Shown here in pieces: positions 3,691 through 62,260 of a stretch of DNA of 64,000 nucleotides (position 1 is the stretch's first letter; every line of letters begins with the position of its first letter). The stretch covers positions 1 through 64,000 of the forward strand of contig JBBQNJ010000012.1 of NCBI GenBank assembly GCA_038329845.1, in the 5' to 3' direction. This stretch comes from Tepidisphaerales bacterium (GTDB taxonomy: Bacteria; Planctomycetota; Phycisphaerae; Tepidisphaerales; Tepidisphaeraceae). The position numbers and the translations under genes were made by a program. Under the pieces are notes generated by a model. It saw nothing but the letters and a program-made list of their open reading frames with translations. It did no database searches and had not been told where the DNA came from.

Positions 3691-3792
3691 TCGAACGCCA
3701 CTCACTTAAGGGCCGAAGTTGGCGAACTCAACTGTATTCTCGGCCGATAAGGCGGCTTTCCCCAGCCTTTTCACGTTAAGTGAATGGCATTC
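3691..3792. mobile_element. MITE-like 102-bp element, copy 1. It has 17-bp terminal inverted repeats GAATGCCATTCACTTAA and is flanked by direct repeats of CTGGATGTC.
   Basis: Reverse complement aligns nearly base-for-base with 18751-18852. Termini gaacgccactcacttaag…cttaagtgaatggcattc. CTGGATGTC is present on both sides. Confidence 0.7.
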
Positions 3793-3883
3793 TGGATGTC
3801 CCCTTTGCCCAAGCGGGCAAAAAAAATCCCCAGCCAGAATGGTTGGGGGTTTGGGGTTACGTCCCATGTTTACAGGGGCGAGG

Positions 3884-5073: not shown

Positions 5074-6225
5074 TTACTCCCCTTCGCGTTGGATGGTTTG
5101 GAGGATTTCCTGCGCCAGGTAAATGCGATTGCGCTTTTGGCCGGTCAATTCGTTGAGAATGCCGGCGGTGAGAAGTTTGTCGATGGCCTTCTGAGCCGAA
5201 CTGAACTGCACATTAAGGATCTGGGCGGCGTGGCTGGTCGTGATGGCCGGATCGATGAAGAGCTGATCCACCAGCGTTGGAAGCAAGGCGGAGGCTCGGG
5301 CGGTGCGCACCCGGCGCTGATATTCGGTTCGCAACAGGTCCAGCTTCTGCACTCGGTCCATCGCATCGGTGGCTTCATGCGCCACGCCGCGGGCGAAGAA
5401 GGTCACCCATTGATTCCACGTCCCGCGCTGGCTGACGTTTAGGAGATGGCGGTAGTATTCGGCACGGTGTCGTTCCAAAAAGGCGCTGGGATTCAGCAGG
5501 GGCACGGGCAACACTTTCTGGGTACCCAGCAGCAGCAGGATGAGTACGCGCCCGATGCGCCCATTGCCATCGGCGAACGGGTGAATGGTTTCAAACTGAT
5601 AGTGGATCATTGCCACGCGGGCCAGAGGCGGCAGAGGGCTGGGTGAACGAATGAATTGTTCCAACTGCTCCATCGCCGGGCCAACTTCGTGCGGCGGGGC
5701 GGGGACAAACGTGGCGTCGGCGATATTGTTCGTGCGTCCGATGTGGGCTTGAACCGAGCGAAAGCGCCCGGGTGTTTTATCTTCCCCGCGTGCATCCTGC
5801 ATCAGAAGCTGGTGCATTTCGCGGATCAGGTCCAGACTGATGGGCCGATGCTGGACCTGTGCCAGGCCCCACTCCAAGGCGCGGAAGTTGTTGTCCACCT
5901 CTCGCACATCGGGGGCACGCTGTTCGGCCGACCGCGTCTGATCGAACAGCACCAGGTCTTTTAGACCGGCGTGGGTTCCCTCGATGCGACTGGACAATTC
6001 CGCTTCGCGGCGCAGGAATGACCGGACCAGCAGCGCGGGATTGGGAAGGCGTTGGCCGACGCCGGCGAGCTGCCCGATCGCCCGATCCGCCGTCGACAGA
6101 GCCGAGACCAGTTCGTCCGACCAGGAAAGCTTGCCCGGCAGCGGAGAGGGGACGAAGCACCAATCGCCGCTGAGATTGCGGACCAGCTCGCCGGACTTGT
6201 CGTCGGTGAAATCAGTGATTTGCAC
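5074..6225 (-). CDS. Fic-family protein (class II, with an intramolecular inhibitory helix) and a C-terminal wHTH-like tail. GTG start.
   Basis: Fic motif HPFADGNGRIGR. Upstream SSRIEG matches the (S/T)xxxE(G/N) inhibitory motif. Confidence 0.85.
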   Translation of the reverse strand: MQITDFTDDKSGELVRNLSGDWCFVPSPLPGKLSWSDELVSALSTADRAIGQLAGVGQRLPNPALLVRSFLRREAELSSRIEGTHAGLKDLVLFDQTRSAEQRAPDVREVDNNFRALEWGLAQVQHRPISLDLIREMHQLLMQDARGEDKTPGRFRSVQAHIGRTNNIADATFVPAPPHEVGPAMEQLEQFIRSPSPLPPLARVAMIHYQFETIHPFADGNGRIGRVLILLLLGTQKVLPVPLLNPSAFLERHRAEYYRHLLNVSQRGTWNQWVTFFARGVAHEATDAMDRVQKLDLLRTEYQRRVRTARASALLPTLVDQLFIDPAITTSHAAQILNVQFSSAQKAIDKLLTAGILNELTGQKRNRIYLAQEILQTIQREGE

Positions 6226-6269
6226 GCGTGGACCTCAGCCCAATTGCACTTGACCGAAATAACGATCTT

Positions 6270-6282
6270 CTTATTTCACTTT
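6270..6282. repeat. 13-bp perfect direct repeat CTTATTTCACTTT, right flank of the fic gene.
   Basis: See 4998-5010. Confidence 0.6.
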
Positions 6283-6383
6283 ATAGCATTTGAGTGTAGT
6301 AAAAGTTTTCTGGGCTGCAAGCGTCACGTCGCAAGTTCGGCCCGTGACATGGCTTGGGAAGTTGCTCGGGTCGTCGCGACGGG

Positions 6384-6965
6384 CTATCGGGAGATTTGAG
6401 GGAAAGCGCCGTCGGGGCGGGCGAGGACTTTCATGATCAGGGGGTCGCCGGGGGTTTGGGGTTCGTAGGCGGCGATGGCCCATCGCATGCCGGCGTGGGC
6501 GGGGGTGGGATCGTAGACGATGTAGCGGACGCTGGGATCGGTGACGCGAAGGCCGACGGGGTCGTAGATGTAGGGCAATCCCGACACCGGACAGGTCAAT
6601 TCGGGCAGAACGGTCTCGCCCGGTTGGGTTGTGGGCAGGGTGGGCAGGTCCGACAGATGCTCGGGCAGTTCGTGTCGCATGGCGTAGTAGAGGAGCAGGC
6701 CGCCGCAGATATCGTGCAGTCGCATGGCGCAGGGGTCGGTATTGGAGAGCTCGGTCGGGGGGGTGGATTTAGCGGGTCGGGGCGGCGTTTTGGGGGCGCA
6801 TCCGGCGGCGATCGACGCCGCGAGCGTCGCCGCGATGATCGTAAGGGCGATTCCTCCCGATCGGCGAGGCGGCTGAGGATCGAGGCATCCCGATCCGCGG
6901 GGCGGGTGAGGATCGAGGCCGCGGGAGCGATGATATTCGGGGCGTTGGGCCACGATGTGAATCAT
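6384..6965 (-). CDS. Hypothetical lipoprotein, last gene of the pseudopilus operon.
   Basis: Hydrophobic stretch followed by lipobox …LAASIAAGC. ATG overlaps the hydrolase stop (ATGA). The longer track ORF 6384..7355 has a Pro/Arg-rich N-terminus judged artefactual. Confidence 0.55.
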   Translation of the reverse strand: MIHIVAQRPEYHRSRGLDPHPPRGSGCLDPQPPRRSGGIALTIIAATLAASIAAGCAPKTPPRPAKSTPPTELSNTDPCAMRLHDICGGLLLYYAMRHELPEHLSDLPTLPTTQPGETVLPELTCPVSGLPYIYDPVGLRVTDPSVRYIVYDPTPAHAGMRWAIAAYEPQTPGDPLIMKVLARPDGAFPQISR

Positions 6966-16352: not shown

Positions 16353-18016
16353 TGTCCAGCGCGATTGTCCCGGCTTCGTGGTTGCCTTTGTTGGCTGAGC
16401 GTTCGTCGGCCAGCAGCGATTCGACGTTCTGGCTGCTGGCGCTGGTCCTGTTCGTCGCGGCGCTGTTCGTCACCTTCTTTCTGCTGCTGTTCAATCGCTA
16501 CAAGCGCTGCCCGAGCAATCGGGTGCTGGTGATCTTCGGCAAGATCGGCGGGGGCAACACGGCCCGCTGTATCCACGGCGGGGCGGCGTTCATCTGGCCG
16601 TTGATCCAGGACCACGCCTACCTCAGCCTCGAGCCGATCCAGATCGACATCGAGCTGCATGATGCGCTGTCCAACGAGAACATTCGCGTGAACATCCCCA
16701 GCGTCTTCACCGTCGCCATCGGGACCGACCCGGCGATTATGCAGAACGCGGCAATCCGGCTGCTGGGGCTGAATACCATGCAGATCAAGCAGCAGGCGTC
16801 GGACATCATCTTCGGCCAGCTTCGCCAGGTGATCGCGTCGATGCGCATCGAAGACATCAACCGCGACCGCGAGGCGTTTTTGCACAATATCCAGACGTCG
16901 CTGGAGCCGGAACTGCGCAAGGTCGGGCTGGTGTTAATCAACGTGAACCTGCGCGACATCACCGACGCCAGCGGGTACATCGAGGCGATCGGGCAGAAGG
17001 CCGCCAGCCAGGCGATCCAGCAGGCTCGCGGCGATGTGGCCGACCAGGAAAAGCTCGGCGAGGTGCGCGTGGCCGAAGCGCGGCGGGAGAAGGACATCCA
17101 GGTGGCCAACGCGTTGAAGACCCGCGAGATTGGCATGCGCGAGGCGCAGCGAGAGCAGCTTGTGCGGGTGGCCCAGCTCGAGAAGGAACAGAAGGTCGGC
17201 GAGCAGACCGCCGGTTACGAGCGGGATGTGCAGGTGAAGGCGGCCGAGCGTGAGATGCGCATCAGCGTCGCCGATGCCAACGCCAAGGCGATCGCCGGTG
17301 AGGCCAAGGCGCAGGCCGAGGTCGTCGCCACCCAGGCGCAGTTGCAGGTCAAGCAGGCCGAGGCGTATCAATTGGGCGAGACCCGCAAGCGCGAGAGCGA
17401 GGCGGCGGTGCAGGAAGCGCAGAACCGTGCGATGGCGAAGGCGGCTTTGGCCCAGGCCGAGCGCGTCGAGGCCGAGCGGCGGGCGGCGGTGGAGGCACCG
17501 GCCAAGGCCGAAAAAGCGAAGATGATCGTGGATGCCGAGGCGTCGGCGGAAAAGCGTCGGATCGAGGCTCAGGGCGAGGCATCGGCGATCTTCGCCAAGC
17601 TCGAGGCCGAGGCCCGCGGGCAGTTCGAGATTCTCGCCCGCAAGGGAGAGGGTCTCAAGCAGATCATCGACGCCGCGGGCGGGGCCAAGGAGGCGTTTCA
17701 GTTGCTCATGCTCGAACACCTCGATCATCTGGCATTGACCGCGGCGCAGGCGATCAGCAACATCAAGTTCGACAAGGTGGTGGTCTGGGAAAACGGCTCG
17801 GGGGGCAGCGGCAACGGCAACGGCAACGGATCAAGCGCCACCGGCAACTTCCTGCAAAGCATGTCGCGCACGCTGCCTCCGATGATGCAGGTGATGCGTG
17901 ACATCGGCGGGGTTGAGCTGCCGGACTACCTGGTCAAGCTCAAGGACGACGTCGTGGCGGCCAACGTCGATGTCCCGCCGGGGCCGACTCCCAAGCGGGA
18001 AGCCGGGGAAACCTGA
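16349..18016 (+). CDS. Flotillin-like SPFH/band-7 protein (YqiK/FloT type).
   Basis: N-terminal TM, SPFH domain, long Ala/Glu/Lys-rich coiled-coil. RBS aaggag upstream. The track ORF 15926.. has an artefactual N-terminal extension. Confidence 0.85.
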   Translation: MMSSAIVPASWLPLLAERSSASSDSTFWLLALVLFVAALFVTFFLLLFNRYKRCPSNRVLVIFGKIGGGNTARCIHGGAAFIWPLIQDHAYLSLEPIQIDIELHDALSNENIRVNIPSVFTVAIGTDPAIMQNAAIRLLGLNTMQIKQQASDIIFGQLRQVIASMRIEDINRDREAFLHNIQTSLEPELRKVGLVLINVNLRDITDASGYIEAIGQKAASQAIQQARGDVADQEKLGEVRVAEARREKDIQVANALKTREIGMREAQREQLVRVAQLEKEQKVGEQTAGYERDVQVKAAEREMRISVADANAKAIAGEAKAQAEVVATQAQLQVKQAEAYQLGETRKRESEAAVQEAQNRAMAKAALAQAERVEAERRAAVEAPAKAEKAKMIVDAEASAEKRRIEAQGEASAIFAKLEAEARGQFEILARKGEGLKQIIDAAGGAKEAFQLLMLEHLDHLALTAAQAISNIKFDKVVVWENGSGGSGNGNGNGSSATGNFLQSMSRTLPPMMQVMRDIGGVELPDYLVKLKDDVVAANVDVPPGPTPKREAGET

Positions 18017-18078
18017 GGCGGGCGGTTGCCGGCGCGGCGGAAACGGTGGATGTCACCTTTTCCCATGTCAGTGGCCGA
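17975..18078. repeat. Native flotillin 3' end plus downstream ~60 bp. A diverged copy of this ~100-bp segment lies at 18672-18880, beyond hicBA.
   Basis: ccgccggggccgactcccaagcgggaagccggggaaacc…ggaaacggtggatgtcaccttttcccatgtc versus gcgccgccgactcccaagcaggaagccgaggaaatt…ggaaacggtggatgtcac[MITE]gtggatgtcaccttttcccaagtc. Confidence 0.65.
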
Positions 18079-18671: not shown

Positions 18672-18880
18672 GCGCCGCCGACTCCCAAGCAGGAAGCCGA
18701 GGAAATTTGGGGCCGGCGATCGCCGGTGCGGGGGAAACGGTGGATGTCACGAATGCCATTCACTTAACGTGAAAACGGTCGGGAAAAGCCGCCTTAGCGG
18801 CGCGAGACTGCAGTTGAGTTTGCCGACTTTGACCCTTAAGTGAATGGCATTCGTGGATGTCACCTTTTCCCAAGTCGGGC
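18672..18880. repeat. Displaced, diverged copy of the flotillin 3' end (stop codon lost), interrupted by the MITE at 18751-18852.
   Basis: See 17975-18078. Confidence 0.6.
18751..18852. mobile_element. MITE-like 102-bp element, copy 2. 17-bp TIR GAATGCCATTCACTTAA and an 11-bp target-site duplication GTGGATGTCAC.
   Basis: Perfect TIRs gaatgccattcacttaa / ttaagtgaatggcattc. Flanking gtggatgtcac on both sides. An uninterrupted site (ggaaacggtggatgtcaccttttccc) exists at 18040-18066. Confidence 0.8.
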
Positions 18881-21161: not shown

Positions 21162-21262
21162 CGCGGCGGAGAGGACCCGAAAAGCAAATTCTCTCGCAAC
21201 GCCGCCACGACGCCACGAAATACGGAAAAACTTTAACCTTTTGTCTTACGTTGCGTCGTGCC
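21162..21262. repeat. Copy 2 of the hairpin repeat family (see 228-335), between the convergent accA and purQ genes.
   Basis: Alignment to the reverse complement of 228-335. 12-bp stem cacgacgccacg/cgttgcgtcgtg with a ~30-nt loop. Confidence 0.6.
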
Positions 21263-30588: not shown

Positions 30589-31647
30589 ATGACTATGAAG
30601 CACCCAATTTTTCGGACGATTATCGCGGTTTTGCCGGCCCTGTTCATGGCGGGGGGATGCAACCTCTTTACGCCGTCGGATTCGACGATTCGCGGGCAGG
30701 CGACGAACTTCCATTCATCGCTCGAACCGGCGGTGATGGAGGACAAGGCATCGGATCCGGTGCTGGAGCGGTACATGCAGGCGATCGGGTCGCGCATCAT
30801 CGAGGCGGCGCGGGCGATGGATGTGGCGGGCGAGGGTCCCAAGGCGCACACCCGGGGCAAGGACAACTCGTGGATGTTCAACGTGCAGTTCCACCTGGTC
30901 AACAGCAAAACGCTCAACGCCTTCACGACGGGCGGGGATCACATTTACATCTACAACGAGCTGCTCCAGGACTGCAAGAACGAGAACGAGCTGGCGGCGG
31001 TGATGTCGCATGAATATGCCCATATTTACTGCCGCCATGTGCAGTCGGGGACGGATCGGCAGTACAAGGTTCTAGCCGGGGCGCTGGCGCTGGGTGGGGC
31101 GGGGTATCTGGTCGGCGGTAAGGAAAAGGGGGCCGAGTATGCCCAGCTCGCCAGCCAGGGGGCGACGGTGGCGGGCTCGCTGATCAACATGGGATTCACG
31201 CGGGACGACGAGGCGCAGGCCGATGAATGGGGCTGGTATTTCTACACGCGTGCGGGGTGGGATCCGGCCCAGTTCGGGGGATTTTTCCAGACCATGATCG
31301 ACAAGGGTCTGGACACCGCCCCGGAGATGCTCAGCGATCATCCGAGTTTGAAGAACCGCGTGGCGTGGGCGAAGAAGATGTACGATCAGGGGAAGTATGA
31401 CGCCTCGTGGCGAAAACCGCCTGTGGCATCGCCGGCGGAGTTCGAGGCGATCAAGAAGAAGGCCGCGGCGCTGGGTCAGCGGATGCCGGACGACAAGAGC
31501 CTGGCGAACAGCCAGCAGCTTTTGCAGGCATTGCCGCGAAGCTGCATCGCCCCGGTGGATCCGGCGGATCGTAAATCGGCGGCGGATCGCTTAGCGGCGT
31601 CGCTGCGGGCCCAAGCCGCCAAGCCGCGCGATGCCCGCCGCTTATAG
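30589..31647 (+). CDS. M48-family zinc metallopeptidase lipoprotein.
   Basis: Signal + lipobox (LFMAGGC). HEYAH zinc-binding motif with downstream Glu. RBS ggaatgactATG. Confidence 0.8.
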   Translation: MTMKHPIFRTIIAVLPALFMAGGCNLFTPSDSTIRGQATNFHSSLEPAVMEDKASDPVLERYMQAIGSRIIEAARAMDVAGEGPKAHTRGKDNSWMFNVQFHLVNSKTLNAFTTGGDHIYIYNELLQDCKNENELAAVMSHEYAHIYCRHVQSGTDRQYKVLAGALALGGAGYLVGGKEKGAEYAQLASQGATVAGSLINMGFTRDDEAQADEWGWYFYTRAGWDPAQFGGFFQTMIDKGLDTAPEMLSDHPSLKNRVAWAKKMYDQGKYDASWRKPPVASPAEFEAIKKKAAALGQRMPDDKSLANSQQLLQALPRSCIAPVDPADRKSAADRLAASLRAQAAKPRDARRL

Positions 31648-31670: not shown

Positions 31671-31872
31671 TTTTGTAGGGTGGGGCTTGCCCCACCATTT
31701 CCGAATGGCAACGAAATGGGTAACACTTCAGCCGTCTGCCGCGATTCCCGTTTTTGCGGCCTCAGTCAAGTTGGGTCTGTCTGCTGACCCGCGATATCAG
31801 CCTCAGAATCAACGTGCCGGCATTTGGCTGAAATGTGACCGAAATGGTGGGGCAAGCCCCACCCTACAGAAA
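31671..31872. mobile_element. ~120-bp repeat element (core 31724-31840, 8-13-bp imperfect TIRs cacTTCAGCCG) embedded between two 30-bp perfect inverted repeats, each containing a GGTGGGGC-nn-GCCCCACC hairpin. Second core copy at 50965-51080.
   Basis: Core aligns ~92% to 50965-51080. Flanked here by direct CGAAATGG. Outer palindrome ttttgtagggtggggcttgccccaccatttc … gaaatggtggggcaagccccaccctacagaaa. Confidence 0.65.
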
Positions 31873-32074: not shown

Positions 32075-33727
32075 TCAACCGCCGGGGGGGACACCGGCGG
32101 CACTCAAGTCAACGGATGGTTGCAGCTCGAGGACGACTCGCCGGGGCGAAAGGCGTTGCTCGGCGATCAGGAGCCAGCTCTCCAGACGACCGGGGCCGGC
32201 CTTGAGCGTGATCGGCGCGAGTTCGATTCGGGTCTGGCCGGCTTGTACGGGCGCTGAGCGACCGATCCCGTCGATCGCCACCATCGCGTGGCCATCGGCC
32301 GAAATGCCGGGCAGGTGCAGCTCGATGCGATACTCACCCGGGCGGGTGATGAGCAATTCCCAATGCCCGGCGTGCTGATCCGACCAGCCGTCGTCTCCGT
32401 GCCCGCGCCAATCCTGGCGGGTGAGGATCACCCGCGGCTCATGGTCGTCGCCGACATGGATCAAGATCGGGGCGTAGTTGTCCGGCCGGGTATTCGAGAC
32501 GTCCGCGAACCATTGTTCATACCGATCGCGCAACGTGGCGACGACCTCGACGTGGCGATCGGACACGTCCTGGCGCTCGAGAGGGTCGGCGATCAGATCG
32601 TAAAGTTCGCGTCCATCGACGAGTTTCCATCTCGAAGTAATGACCGCGCAGTTGGTGTAGAGGCGTGGGACATCGCCGCGATGCCATTGCATGATGATCG
32701 TCCGTTCGTGGGGCGGTTGCGGTTGATCCGGTCGCATCGCCGGCAGGAGGTTGATGCCGTCGATCGTGCGGTCGCTGGGCAGTGGCACTCGGCACAAGTT
32801 GGCCAAAGTCGGCAGCACGTCGATCGGGTTGGCGGGGATTGCCACATCGCGCGCGGCGGGGAAATGGTCCGGCCACCGCCAGAAGCAAGGGGTTCTGATG
32901 CCCCCTTCGTAGAGGCTGCCCTTAAGCCCGCGCAGCTCCGCGTTGAAGCGTGACTGTCCCTCGTGGCGAGCCGCGGGGCAGGGGCCATGATCGCTGGTGA
33001 AGATCACGACCGTCCGCTGATCGATTTTCATGTCGCCGAGCTGATCGAAAATCCGGCCGAGGTTCATGTCCAGGTTCTCGATCATTGCGTAGAGCCGGGC
33101 GTGTTTTTCATTCAGGCCGCGTTCAAGGTGATGGGCGAACCACTCCTGGGGGACGTGCAGCGGGACATGCGGCACATTGGGCGCCAGGCAGCAGAGGAAG
33201 GGCGTTGTGGCTTTTGCGATAAAGTCCATGGCGGCGTCGGTGAACACATCGGTGCAATATCCGTTGCTCGGTTCGATCCGGCCGTTGTGCTGCAGATCCG
33301 GGTCCATGTAGCCGTCGCGGTCGGTGAAGGATCCCGGTTGGCGAAGCCCGCCGCCTTGATGCACCAGGGTTTGCTGGAACCCTTTATCACAAGCTCGCGT
33401 GGGATAGTGGTCTCCCAGATGCCACTTGCCAAACAGGCCGGTGGCATATCCGGCCTCCTGAAAGATTTCGCCCAGGGTGATTTCGCGCGGGTCCATGATG
33501 GATCGGCCGAGGTAGGTGTCGATGGCGCCGGTGCGGTAGGGATAGCGCCCGGTGAAGAGGCTGGCCCGGGCCGGGGTGCAAAGCGGCCCGGAGCAATAGC
33601 GGGTGAAGCGGGTGCTTTGGGCGTGAAGCTGATCCAGCCGGGGGGTGCGAACGTGGGGATTGCCGTGGCAGGCCAAGTCGCCCCAGCACAGGTCATCGGT
33701 GATGATGAGCAGGATATTGGGTTGCAT
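32075..33727 (-). CDS. Sulfatase (Cys-type) with no obvious signal peptide.
   Basis: LLIITDDLCWGDL, CTPARAS formylglycine motif, GKWHLG. C-terminal ~150 aa extra domain. Confidence 0.85.
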   Translation of the reverse strand: MQPNILLIITDDLCWGDLACHGNPHVRTPRLDQLHAQSTRFTRYCSGPLCTPARASLFTGRYPYRTGAIDTYLGRSIMDPREITLGEIFQEAGYATGLFGKWHLGDHYPTRACDKGFQQTLVHQGGGLRQPGSFTDRDGYMDPDLQHNGRIEPSNGYCTDVFTDAAMDFIAKATTPFLCCLAPNVPHVPLHVPQEWFAHHLERGLNEKHARLYAMIENLDMNLGRIFDQLGDMKIDQRTVVIFTSDHGPCPAARHEGQSRFNAELRGLKGSLYEGGIRTPCFWRWPDHFPAARDVAIPANPIDVLPTLANLCRVPLPSDRTIDGINLLPAMRPDQPQPPHERTIIMQWHRGDVPRLYTNCAVITSRWKLVDGRELYDLIADPLERQDVSDRHVEVVATLRDRYEQWFADVSNTRPDNYAPILIHVGDDHEPRVILTRQDWRGHGDDGWSDQHAGHWELLITRPGEYRIELHLPGISADGHAMVAIDGIGRSAPVQAGQTRIELAPITLKAGPGRLESWLLIAEQRLSPRRVVLELQPSVDLSAAGVPPGG

Positions 33728-33825: not shown

Positions 33826-33980
33826 GGAGGTCGAGCGGATGATCTTGGGAATCACGTGCTGGGTGGTGAGGGTATCGGCGCGATCGAGCATTTGCGCGAA
33901 GATTTTTCTCCAGCGGCTCGGTTCGGCGGTCACCCCAGTAGCGGCGAAGGCTCAGGTAGACGTTGATACGCCCGAAAGAG
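33826..33980 (-). pseudogene. Diverged ~155-bp fragment copying the 3' end (last ~45 codons, stop retained) of the hypothetical gene at 34407-35156.
   Basis: ~85% nucleotide identity to 34407-34572 with one 1-bp indel. Translated tail …PKIIRSTSTAIGSRS* versus …MPKIVKSISSAIASRS*. Confidence 0.6.
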
Positions 33981-34037
33981 TCAAGACGCCCGAAAGAGTC
34001 AAGACGCCCGAAAGGGTCAAGACGCCCGAAAGGGTCA
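33963..34037. repeat. Tandem repeat of 4-5 copies of an 18-bp unit (ACGCCCGAAAGRGTCAAG).
   Basis: gagtcaagacgcccgaaagagtcaagacgcccgaaagagtcaagacgcccgaaagggtcaagacgcccgaaagggtcagg. Confidence 0.85.
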
Positions 34038-34118
34038 GGTGCATCGGATCAGGCGTGAGGCTCCGAAAGCCGAGGTGCTGCACTTGGAGTGGGCTTTCCG
34101 CCAACGCGGTGAGCGCAT

Positions 34119-45140: not shown

Positions 45141-45212
45141 GCTCGGGGAATAATCTGGATGTCGCCGTGTCGCCGTGTCGCCGTGTGCCCGTGTCGCCGT
45201 GTGCCCGTGTCG
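45141..45212. repeat. Heptanucleotide simple-sequence repeat (CCGTGTCG/CCGTGTGC, ~9-10 units).
   Basis: gtcgccgtgtcgccgtgtcgccgtgtgcccgtgtcgccgtgtgcccgtgtcgccgtgtaccggtgtcgg, directly after an AATAATCTGGATGTC motif. Confidence 0.85.
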
Positions 45213-45348
45213 CCGTGTACCGGTGTCGGTGGCGAGTTTTCGCCTTGGCGCTCGCTTTTGCCGGCGATGCGAGAGGAGATTCGGGTCAGACGCGCACGGG
45301 GACGCGCTGCTGATGTGGGTCCGTCGGACGGCGACCCGCTCTTCGGGC

Positions 45349-50525: not shown

Positions 50526-50891
50526 ATGTCGAAGCGATGGATTCTGATGGCGCTGATGGCGCTGGGATTGGCCGGCACGGCGGCGTTGAGCGTGCGCGGC
50601 GCCGATGCGGCCAAGAACGATGCGCAGGAGCAGAAGAAGGAAGCCGACGAGGTGAAGGTCACGCTGGACCAACTGCCCGCCGCGGTCAAGGACACTCTGC
50701 TAAAGGAAGTCGGCAAGGGCACGATCAGCGACATCGACAAAGAAACGGAGGACGGCAAGACGATCTACGAGGCCGACGCCACCATCGACGGCAAGAATTG
50801 GGAAATCAAGATCGCCGAGGATGGCAAACTCATCAGTAAAAAGCTGGATGATGAGAAAGACGAGCATAACCAGCACGAGGACAAGAACTGA
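50526..50891 (+). CDS. Secreted PepSY-like domain protein. Lys/Glu/Asp-rich, with GC content markedly below that of neighbouring genes.
   Basis: Signal peptide. LPAAVKDTLLKEVGKGTISDIDKETEDGKTIYEADATIDGKNWEIKIAEDGKLI matches the PepSY beta-fold repeat pattern. Confidence 0.6.
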   Translation: MSKRWILMALMALGLAGTAALSVRGADAAKNDAQEQKKEADEVKVTLDQLPAAVKDTLLKEVGKGTISDIDKETEDGKTIYEADATIDGKNWEIKIAEDGKLISKKLDDEKDEHNQHEDKN

Positions 50892-50964
50892 ACGTTCGGT
50901 ATAAGTCTTTGCTAGACGGTCAGGGCCGGCGAGGCAACCGGCCTTGACCTTTCATATACTGCAA

Positions 50965-51080
50965 CACTTCAGCCGTCTGCCGCGATTCCCGTTTTGCGGC
51001 CTCAGTCAAGTTGAGTCTGTCTGCTGCCCCGCGATATCAGCCTCAGAATCAGCGTGGCGGCATTCGGCTGAAATGTTACC
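50965..51080. mobile_element. Copy 2 of the ~120-bp repeat element, immediately upstream of the response-regulator start codon.
   Basis: ~92% identity to 31724-31840. Flanking tatact / tatactct. Confidence 0.65.
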
Positions 51081-51094
51081 CCTATACTCTGTCC

Positions 51095-51769
51095 ATGCGC
51101 GTGCTTCTGATCGAGGATTCCGAGCGCTTGCAACGGTCGGTTGCGGCGGGACTTCGCGACGCCGGTTATGCCGTGGACATCGCCGGCAACGGAACACAGG
51201 GCCTGTGGAATGCTCAATCCCACGACTATGACGTGATCGTACTCGACTTGATGCTGCCGGGAATGCACGGGCTGGACGTTCTAAGGCGCTTGCGGGAGGG
51301 GGGGGCTCAGTCGCATGTGCTTGTTCTGACCGCCAAGGATACCGTCGAGGATCGCGTTCGCGGGCTGCGGTCTGGAGCCGACGACTATCTGATCAAGCCG
51401 TTTGCCTTCGATGAACTGCTGGCCCGGATTCAGGCCCTGGTCCGGCGCCGCCATGGCGAAAAGAACCCGCGGATGACCCTCGGGGCGCTGGAGATCAACG
51501 TGGCGAGCCGCGCCGTTGTCTGGCATGGAGATCCGGTCAACCTCACGTCGCGGGAGTACGCCCTGTTGGAATACCTGGCGGCGCGGCGCGGGCAGGTTGT
51601 TTCCCGCACCGAGATCGAAGCCCATATTTACGACGAACAGGCCGAACCGATGAGCAATGTCGTGGACGCAGCGATCTATGCGCTGCGGCGCAAGCTGGAA
51701 CACGCAGGCGAGCCGTCGATCATCAAGACGCGGCGGGGAATGGGCTACATACTGGACTGCGAAACGTGA
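51095..51769 (+). CDS. OmpR-family two-component response regulator.
   Basis: Receiver domain (DVIVLDLMLPGMHG, KPF) + winged-helix output (…RTEIEAHIYD…). Confidence 0.9.
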   Translation: MRVLLIEDSERLQRSVAAGLRDAGYAVDIAGNGTQGLWNAQSHDYDVIVLDLMLPGMHGLDVLRRLREGGAQSHVLVLTAKDTVEDRVRGLRSGADDYLIKPFAFDELLARIQALVRRRHGEKNPRMTLGALEINVASRAVVWHGDPVNLTSREYALLEYLAARRGQVVSRTEIEAHIYDEQAEPMSNVVDAAIYALRRKLEHAGEPSIIKTRRGMGYILDCET

Positions 51770-53211
51770 GCCGCTCGCTTCATCGTCAACTGTTCTGGCC
51801 GTTGCTGCTGGGGGTGTTGGGGGTCGGCATGGCCGCGGGACTGTTGCTGTACCTCGGGGTTCGGTCTGAATTCCTGGAGCAATTTGACGCCTCGCTCGCC
51901 GAGCAGGGGCGCTCGCTGGGTTCGTTCGTCAAGCTCACCGACGGCGGGCGCGTCGAAATGGACGTGGACGACGACCCCCTGTCGCAGTTTGCTCCCGGCC
52001 GTCATGCTGAATATTTCGAGATCTGGCTACCAGACGGGTCGGTTCTTGCGCGGTCGCCGTCGCTGGCATCTGATCACCTGCCCAGGCAAATGGCGGCACC
52101 GCAACGGCCATTGTTCAGGGACGTGCGCCTGCCGGATGGCCGACCGGGCCGGGCCATCATCATGTCGGTAGCTCCGCGGTGGGATGAGGATGATTCTCAC
52201 GGCAACGCCGCCGCCTCGGCCACGGCCCGGGCCGCCGAGGTTTCGGCCGTGCAGCTGGCGCTGGCCAGGGATCGAGAGGAATTGGACGAGGCGCTCGCCA
52301 CCTTGTTGACGGCGCTGATGCTCACGGCCGTCTTGATGTCGCTGATTGTGCCCCTGATCGTTTCGATCGTTGTCAGACGGGGACTTCGCCCGTTAAACGC
52401 CCTCGCCAGCCATGCCGCCGCGATTGATGCGGCCAGCCTGGGGTCGCGATTTGCGACGCGGGACCTGCCGGCGGAACTGACGCCGATCTGCGCGAAACTC
52501 AACGAATTGCTGCACCGCCTGGATGAGGCGTTTCAGCGCGAAAGGCGCTTCACCGCTGATGCCGCCCATGAGCTGCGCACGCCGATCGCCGAACTGCGCT
52601 CGCTTGCCGAAGTCGCCCTGCGAACAAACCCTGAGCCAGCGGCGGCGGCGGCCTACTTCCAGGATGCGCTGAATATTGCCGTGCAGATGGAGCGACTGGT
52701 GATCATGCTGCTGGGGCTGGCTCGCGGACAGGCAAAGCAACAGCAGGTCGCGCGCGAATCGTGCGATCTGGCCCAGTTGGTCAACGCAACCTGGAAGACT
52801 CTGCGGGAGCCCGCCGAGAAGCGGAGACTGCGCTTGGACATCCTCCTTCCGGAAACGGCGGAAGTGATATCCGACCGGGGCTTACTCTCGGCGGTGCTGC
52901 GGAACGTGATGTCCAACGCCGTCGATCATTCTCCGGCCGGGGGAGAAGTCGTGTGCCGATTGGAGAAGGAGGATGTCGCCTGGACTTTGGAACTGCGGAA
53001 TAGCAACGACTCGCTAACATCGGCGGACCTGGCCCATCTCGGCGAGCCGTTCTGGCGGCATTCGGCGGCCCGCGGCGACCAGGCTCACGCCGGGCTGGGG
53101 CTGGCGCTAGTCCGAAGATATTGCGATATCCTCGGGATTATTCTCCGAGTTGACCTGCCCTCACCCACGTGCTTCCGCATCGCCCTGACCGTGGGGGACG
53201 ACAAGTCGTGA
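51766..53211 (+). CDS. Sensor histidine kinase. GTG start overlapping the regulator stop.
   Basis: Two TM helices with a periplasmic domain. H-box ADAAHELRTPIAEL. HATPase_c G-boxes (GLGLALV). Confidence 0.85.
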   Translation: MSRSLHRQLFWPLLLGVLGVGMAAGLLLYLGVRSEFLEQFDASLAEQGRSLGSFVKLTDGGRVEMDVDDDPLSQFAPGRHAEYFEIWLPDGSVLARSPSLASDHLPRQMAAPQRPLFRDVRLPDGRPGRAIIMSVAPRWDEDDSHGNAAASATARAAEVSAVQLALARDREELDEALATLLTALMLTAVLMSLIVPLIVSIVVRRGLRPLNALASHAAAIDAASLGSRFATRDLPAELTPICAKLNELLHRLDEAFQRERRFTADAAHELRTPIAELRSLAEVALRTNPEPAAAAAYFQDALNIAVQMERLVIMLLGLARGQAKQQQVARESCDLAQLVNATWKTLREPAEKRRLRLDILLPETAEVISDRGLLSAVLRNVMSNAVDHSPAGGEVVCRLEKEDVAWTLELRNSNDSLTSADLAHLGEPFWRHSAARGDQAHAGLGLALVRRYCDILGIILRVDLPSPTCFRIALTVGDDKS

Positions 53212-62029: not shown

Positions 62030-62260
62030 AGGCGACGCCCGCCCCGTTAGCCCGACGCGCCAGCGAGGGAATCCGGGGGTGCCGAAGCGATGCCCGCATC
62101 GCGTCCCCGTTAGCCCGACGCGCCAGCGAGGGAATGTGGCGAAGCGCCAGCGAGGGAACCCGAGCCGACACGGAATGCTACGACTACGACGCGGCCCGCG
62201 CGAAAACTACGACGCAGCCCGCGCGAAAACTACGACGCAGCCCGCGCGAAAACGCGGCGA
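62030..62260. repeat. Complex tandem-repeat region (2 units of CCCCGTTAGCCCGACGCGCCAGCGAGGGAAT, 3 of GCGCCAGCGAGGGAA, 3 of CTACGACGCAGCCCGCGCGAAAA).
   Basis: Direct reading of 62040-62255. Confidence 0.8.

Follow-up and report, generated by a model that had tools for sequence, protein, structure and literature searches.

A probable MITE with IS66/ISBst12-type ends in two unrelated intergenic regions of a 64-kb window

Two copies of a short repeat and their surroundings

Two unrelated intergenic regions of the 64-kb window, by which we mean the whole stretch of DNA that was analysed, carry the same short repeat in one orientation. Copy A (120 bp; 31720..31839, + strand) is located between two convergent genes, an M48 peptidase gene on the forward strand (30589-31647) and a sulfatase gene on the reverse strand (32075-33727). 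Copy B (119 bp; 50961..51079, + strand) is located between a small PepSY-like gene (50526-50891), labelled on the basis of its similarity to the orthologous upstream gene, and an intact gene for a 224-aa OmpR-family response regulator (51095..51769, + strand), which is followed by an intact histidine kinase gene (51766-53211). The translation of the regulator ORF from the ATG at 51095 is 100% identical to database protein P0001, which is likewise 224 aa long, and orthologues of the regulator are similar in length. Copy B ends at 51079, in agreement with the 15-nt gap to the regulator start codon given in the first-pass annotation. Downstream of the PepSY-like gene, a terminator scan called a 12-pair terminator-like hairpin (50918..50949, + strand), which lies outside the element and is separated from copy B by 11 nt. 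The PepSY-like gene of the window encodes 121 aa with one repeat while its orthologues encode 163 aa, and both internal repeats of the orthologues align to the single repeat of the window gene.

The boundaries of both copies were set by direct reading, alignment and BLASTN. The first-pass annotation had proposed an element of ~120 bp at these two loci with ~92% identity between the copies, and BLASTN, alignment and the repeat finder, whose direct-repeat pair D7 corresponds to the same two copies, all recovered it. The identity proved slightly higher than proposed, at 94.8% over 115 nt when copy A was searched against the window (31722-31836 versus 50963-51076, E = 1e-45) and ~94-95% over the refined boundaries. 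When the copies are aligned, similarity ends sharply at their terminal repeats. No third copy of the repeat was found in the 64-kb window by BLASTN or by a search with the terminus motif, leaving a census of two copies within the window. Neither copy has coding capacity, both being too short for a transposase, and tblastn detected no similarity to an IS66 transposase anywhere in the 64 kb. Searches beyond the window, with the genome of origin being in neither the genome nor the metagenome collection scanned, did not recover the repeat as a whole: it was absent from all loci returned by a genome scan with an 18-mer from its left end, a BLAST search of a plasmid collection with the element gave no match, and an 18-mer from its interior had 34 matches in a metagenome scan, with which the elements aligned over no more than 32 nt by BLAST.

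Copy A is flanked by the two arms of a palindrome that appears to have been present before the element arrived. The arms (31671..31701 and 31841..31871), identified by the repeat finder as inverted pair I5 and by reconstruction of the empty site, are 31 nt long and 97% complementary, and hold the hairpins GGTGGGGCTTGCCCCACC and GGTGGGGCAAGCCCCACC, respectively. The hairpin motif GGTGGGGCnnGCCCCACC occurs in the window only in these two arms, versus 0.08 occurrences expected, and no other palindrome of the TGTAGGG...CCCTACA type was found elsewhere in the window. In silico deletion of copy A together with one copy of the 8-bp sequence CGAAATGG gives TTTTGTAGGGTGGGGCTTGCCCCACCATTTC-CGAATGGCAAC-GAAATGGTGGGGCAAGCCCCACCCTACAGAA, a reconstructed empty site in which a stem of 31 bp closes a loop of 11 nt (-66 kcal/mol over the 98 nt folded) and which comprises two intact GGTGGGGC..GCCCCACC hairpins spaced 25 nt apart. 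The insertion point of copy A falls at the junction of the loop with the right arm. As both small hairpins are left whole by the insertion, no hairpin is split by copy A, contrary to what had first been proposed. The further proposal that the element had inserted into a terminator palindrome between convergent genes held for the palindrome and for the gene arrangement, but the palindrome was not called by the terminator consensus scan and a clear T-tract is missing; the palindrome follows the peptidase stop codon by 24 nt and could nevertheless act as a terminator. A double-hairpin palindrome is also found in a Planctomycetaceae MAG (L024 3339-3415; CTGTAGGG-hairpin-9 nt-hairpin-CCCTACA), which shares its architecture and its outer TGTAGGG/CCCTACA bases with the window palindrome at 31671-31871. 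The two may represent a recurrent type of planctomycete intergenic palindrome.

Terminal repeats, target-site duplications and insertion sequences with the same ends

The ends of the element are imperfect inverted repeats of ~23 nt that start with GTAAC, and are thus longer than the short imperfect repeats initially noted. In copy A, the left terminal inverted repeat is GTAACACTTCAGCCGTCTGCCGC (31720..31742, + strand) and the right terminal inverted repeat reads GTCACATTTCAGCCAAATGCCGG as its reverse complement (31817..31839, - strand), while the reverse complement of the right end of copy B is GTAACATTTCAGCCGAATGCCGC. By direct count, the left and right repeats match at 17/23 positions in copy A and at 19/23 in copy B. 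The terminus motif has four matches in the window, versus 0.8 expected by chance.

Both copies are bordered by short direct repeats, as the first-pass annotation had also suggested. At copy A, direct reading and reconstruction of the empty site identified a target-site duplication, CGAAATGG, on the left (31712..31719) and on the right (31840..31847), the latter sharing 7 nt with the start of the right palindrome arm. This duplication is perfect (8/8 bp), and the probability of such a match arising by chance is ~1.5e-5. At copy B, direct reading gave a decayed duplication, CATATACT on the left (50953..50960) and CCTATACT on the right (51081..51088), which match at seven of eight positions and are offset by an extra C at 51080.

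The genome scan mentioned above, which covered one genome per species and used the left-end 18-mer CACTTCAGCCGTCTGCCG as the query, gave 24 stretches, of which 10 belong to one Tepidisphaeraceae MAG chromosome, OY969783.1. Three of these 10 contain the 18-mer twice in inverted orientation at a spacing of 1,539 nt, and these pairs delimit a 1,565-bp IS with perfect 22-nt termini, GTAACACTTCAGCCGTCTGCCG, at both ends. The IS contains a single ORF of 452 aa with DDE_Tnp_IS66 (E = 1.4e-41) and zf-IS66 domains, and five of its six full-length copies are flanked by perfect 8-bp duplications (GAGAGATC, GGGCACGA, GATTCATC, CAATCATG and TTCGGATG). The left end of the window element is identical to the termini of this IS over their full length (22/22), and over 25 nt from its tip it agrees with the right terminus at 24/25 positions. 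Transposases with 65-70% identity to that of OY969783.1 abound in metagenomes, and the metagenome IS copies for three of them (66-69% identical) share the terminal motif, for example as GTAACACATCAGCCGCTTGC and GTAGCACTTCACCCATCTGC. The left and right flanks of the metagenome IS contigs (L061-L066) differ, which we attribute to collapsed repeat assemblies, and duplications from these contigs were not used.

These features correspond to what has been described for the IS66 family, whose members have terminal repeats of 20-30 bp starting with GTAA and generate 8-bp direct repeats (PMC11946415), and in particular for the ISBst12 group of single-ORF elements, of which ISDge4 has a 449-aa transposase, termini of GTAACTGCTCAGCA and an 8-bp repeat (PMC12898284). 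Like ISBst12 and ISDge4, the window element has a GTAAC start, terminal repeats of ~22-23 nt and an 8-bp duplication, and the ISDge4 termini, GTAACTGCTCAGCA, resemble GTAACACTTCAGCC (PMC12898284). The OY969783.1 IS also resembles the ISBst12 group in having a single transposase ORF and lacking tnpA/tnpB. Unlike IS66-family insertion sequences, the window element is only 120 bp long and non-coding, and the termini alone are shared, with an IS from a different genome. Beyond ~25 nt from the end, the similarity of the element interior to the sampled IS is near chance level (best, 11/20), and no parent IS was found by subterminal match among the four IS species compared (OY969783.1, L061-66, L067 and L068).

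Two of the OY969783.1 IS copies hold the same insert of ~3.1 kb (L006 4828-7935 and L017 448-3582) at IS position 1234/1235, with the same TA junction and a TA duplication. The inserts are 99% identical and disrupt the transposase gene, and one of the disrupted copies retains a perfect 8-bp duplication, TTCGGATG. This defective derivative is most simply read as having been moved by transposase from another copy. As a MITE requires the same mechanism, a disrupted IS with a perfect duplication fits mobilisation in trans. The ~3.1-kb insert could itself be a nested element that then moved with the IS as a composite, or a site-specific second element.

Given its small size, terminal repeats, 8-bp duplication and ends identical to those of an IS66-family IS, we consider it highly probable that the element is a MITE, a 120-bp non-autonomous element with IS66/ISBst12-type ends. 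This agrees with the original reading of the repeat as a small mobile element, which the GTAAC terminus and the 8-bp duplications common to the full-length IS now assign to the IS66 type. An origin that requires no transposase, either by segmental duplication or recombination or as a palindromic repeat of the REP/BIME type, could be entertained given that just two copies are seen and that other small repeats and palindromes abound in the window. However, such an origin is at odds with the sharp end of similarity at the terminal repeats, with the perfect 8-bp target duplication at copy A, and with the presence of identical termini on a bona fide IS that generates duplications of 8 bp, and we consider it extremely unlikely.

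We infer that the source genome contains a cognate transposase and that the element is mobilised in trans. Under this model, an IS66-family DDE transposase encoded elsewhere would bind both GTAACAYTTCAGCCG... ends, and staggered cuts made 8 bp apart at the target would give rise to 8-bp direct repeats around the inserted element. Copy A would have inserted into a CGAAATGG site where the loop and stem of the pre-existing long palindrome between the convergent genes meet, and copy B between the PepSY-like gene and the regulator/kinase pair, 11 nt past the terminator-like hairpin. The element attests to the activity of an ISBst12-like IS66-family transposase in this lineage, and annotators should mask the repeat as a mobile element instead of entering it as an sRNA, leader or terminator feature.

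Folding potential and the response-regulator locus

The internal complementarity of the repeat had led the first-pass annotation to suggest that it might specify a small structured RNA, and a duplicated structured RNA gene or a riboswitch-like cis-regulatory leader has in its favour that the whole element folds better than shuffled sequence, with z-scores between -2.2 and -4.5. When the terminal repeats were removed, however, the interior folded no better than shuffles (z = -0.93, -0.55, -0.91 and +0.54), which places the excess folding signal in the terminal repeats. None of the 37 pairs predicted in a consensus fold of the two copies showed compensatory changes, although two sequences afford this comparison little power. 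Rfam gave no match at the gathering score anywhere in the window, and when E values up to 1 were admitted, the matches at both loci were at chance level (E of 0.5-0.8). An RNA gene would also leave the 8-bp flanking duplications unexplained, and the relatives of the element in other genomes, which are described below, keep the ends alone and have unrelated interiors. With the interior at shuffle level, no compensatory change and no Rfam family, the small structured RNA was not borne out.

The orthologous loci bear on the possibility of a leader. The closest orthologues of the regulator, on contigs L059 and L060, are 80% and 77% identical at the amino acid level, and the order of PepSY-like gene, regulator and kinase is kept in both. 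The element is absent from the corresponding intergenic regions, which are 85 and 180 nt long, respectively. The window intergenic region without the element and one duplication would be ~75 nt long, which agrees with the 85 nt of the spacer of the closest orthologue; the intergenic DNA of L059 and L060 is too diverged from the window to be aligned as a true empty site. As the element is missing at orthologous PepSY-like/regulator/kinase loci, it is not a conserved leader, and the outcome favours mobility over a conserved 5'UTR, the two possibilities between which such loci had been expected to discriminate. A structured RNA or cis-regulatory leader was rejected as a candidate, having shown neither structure beyond chance nor conservation upstream of orthologues, and we regard it as very unlikely. 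On the metagenome contig from JGI that holds the closest orthologue (L059), a different IS66-family IS, with termini GTAACTGTTTACCGTC and a 470-aa transposase, is found directly after the regulator and kinase genes (5195-6831).

The position of copy B had also raised the idea that the element supplies or alters the promoter or 5'UTR of the regulator. A promoter scan that included outward and hybrid promoters detected no sigma-70-like site in 50700-51300 on either strand, and this idea is therefore unsupported. A MITE could still have been co-opted at copy B as a promoter, a stable 5'UTR or an intercistronic hairpin that alters expression of the two-component operon. Any regulator transcript that originates upstream must contain copy B, which lies between the hairpin at 50918-50949 and the ATG at 51095, and pairing between the terminal repeats can give a strong stem (-42 to -51 kcal/mol). 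In addition to the missing promoter, however, the same sequence is present at copy A, where the genes converge and there is no gene to drive, the orthologous loci function without the element, and transposition alone accounts for its position. We thus consider co-option of copy B unlikely, and any regulatory consequence for the two-component operon speculative.

Related miniature elements and other repeats in the window

Short elements with the same ends are present in other genomes: two of the genome-scan matches from outside the Tepidisphaeraceae proved to be miniature elements as well, as opposed to complete IS copies. A Planctomycetaceae MAG contains a 121-bp element (L024 5680-5800) with a perfect 8/8 duplication, GAAAATTG, and an FCB-group MAG contains an element of ~110 bp with degenerate tips (L023 ~1351-1461). 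The ends of both are asymmetric in the same way as those of the window element, with ...GCCGTCTGCCG at one end and ...GCCGAATGSC at the other. An alignment of four elements, the two window copies and those of L024 and L023, revealed ~20 invariant positions at one end, AACACTTCAGCCGTCTGCCG, and a conserved ATTYGGCTGRARTGT at the opposite end of all four. The L024 and L023 elements thus resemble the window element in both asymmetric ends, in their size range (110-121 bp) and in their A/T-rich, GAAAT-type 8-bp duplications. They differ from it in that the interiors are unrelated, that the L024 element is an almost perfect long palindrome, and that the tips of the L023 element have degenerated. 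As judged from these sequences, conserved ends with a free interior are the pattern expected from selection for transposase binding, and the opposite of that expected for a structured RNA.

The target duplications of this terminus type are A/T-rich although the genomes have ~64% G+C, and GAAAT-like duplications are found at copy A (CGAAATGG), in L024 (GAAAATTG) and in L023 (CAAAATCG/CGAAATCC). In this small sample, a sequence preference may explain the landing site of copy A. An identical 10-nt left flank, TTGAAAATTG, borders a metagenome IS copy (L064 3-12) and the L024 MITE (5670-5679), a coincidence that hints at a favoured motif, or at a repeated sequence, as the target.

The window element is comparable to bacterial MITEs such as the IS982-related MITE of Cardinium (PMC9769881) and MITEPsy1/2 of Pseudomonas syringae (PMC3189936), being short, non-coding and intergenic, with terminal repeats that resemble those of an IS family and with flanking target duplications. 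It differs from them in its IS66/ISBst12-like termini, in its host, which is probably a planctomycete of the class Phycisphaerae, and in that two copies are visible. The papers searched described no IS66-derived MITE, a result of a limited search that is no proof of absence. If IS66-type MITEs are indeed little described, the conserved pair of ends, GTAACACTTCAGCCGN{70,110}CGGCTGAARTGTTAC, provides a key with which planctomycete genomes can be searched. A broader proposal would combine two statements: that a single MITE family of ~110-120 bp with ISBst12-type ends, preferring GAAAT-type A/T-rich sites beside hairpins, is spread across Planctomycetota, in Phycisphaerae as well as Planctomycetia, and is present in at least one FCB-group genome, and that co-option of copy B insulates or retunes the PepSY-like/regulator/kinase operon through a strong hairpin 15 nt before the start codon. 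We consider this combination improbable.

Several other repeats were noted in the window. An intergenic block of diverged repeats at 450-960 contains three units of ~71 nt (455-525, 687-757 and 835-905; 65-83% identity) with the core AATGTGACAnAATTGYGAYR...CACGTCCC, as well as a 57-nt pair (763-819 and 899-955; 91%). Two copies of a 67-nt sequence in inverted orientation, at 268-334 and 21163-21229, are separated by 20.8 kb and 96% identical, and may constitute a further small dispersed repeat. A further family of repeats, both direct and inverted, has TTAAGTGAATGGCATTC cores and is found at 3743-3801, 17983-18056 and 18677-18871 (I2, I4, I7, D8 and D18). Tandem arrays are located at 45152-45231, 33950-34055 and 62183-62253, and consist of ~10 copies of the 8-nt unit TGTCGCCG, ~5 copies of the 18-nt unit ACGCCCGAAAGAGTCAAG and three copies of a 23-nt unit, respectively.
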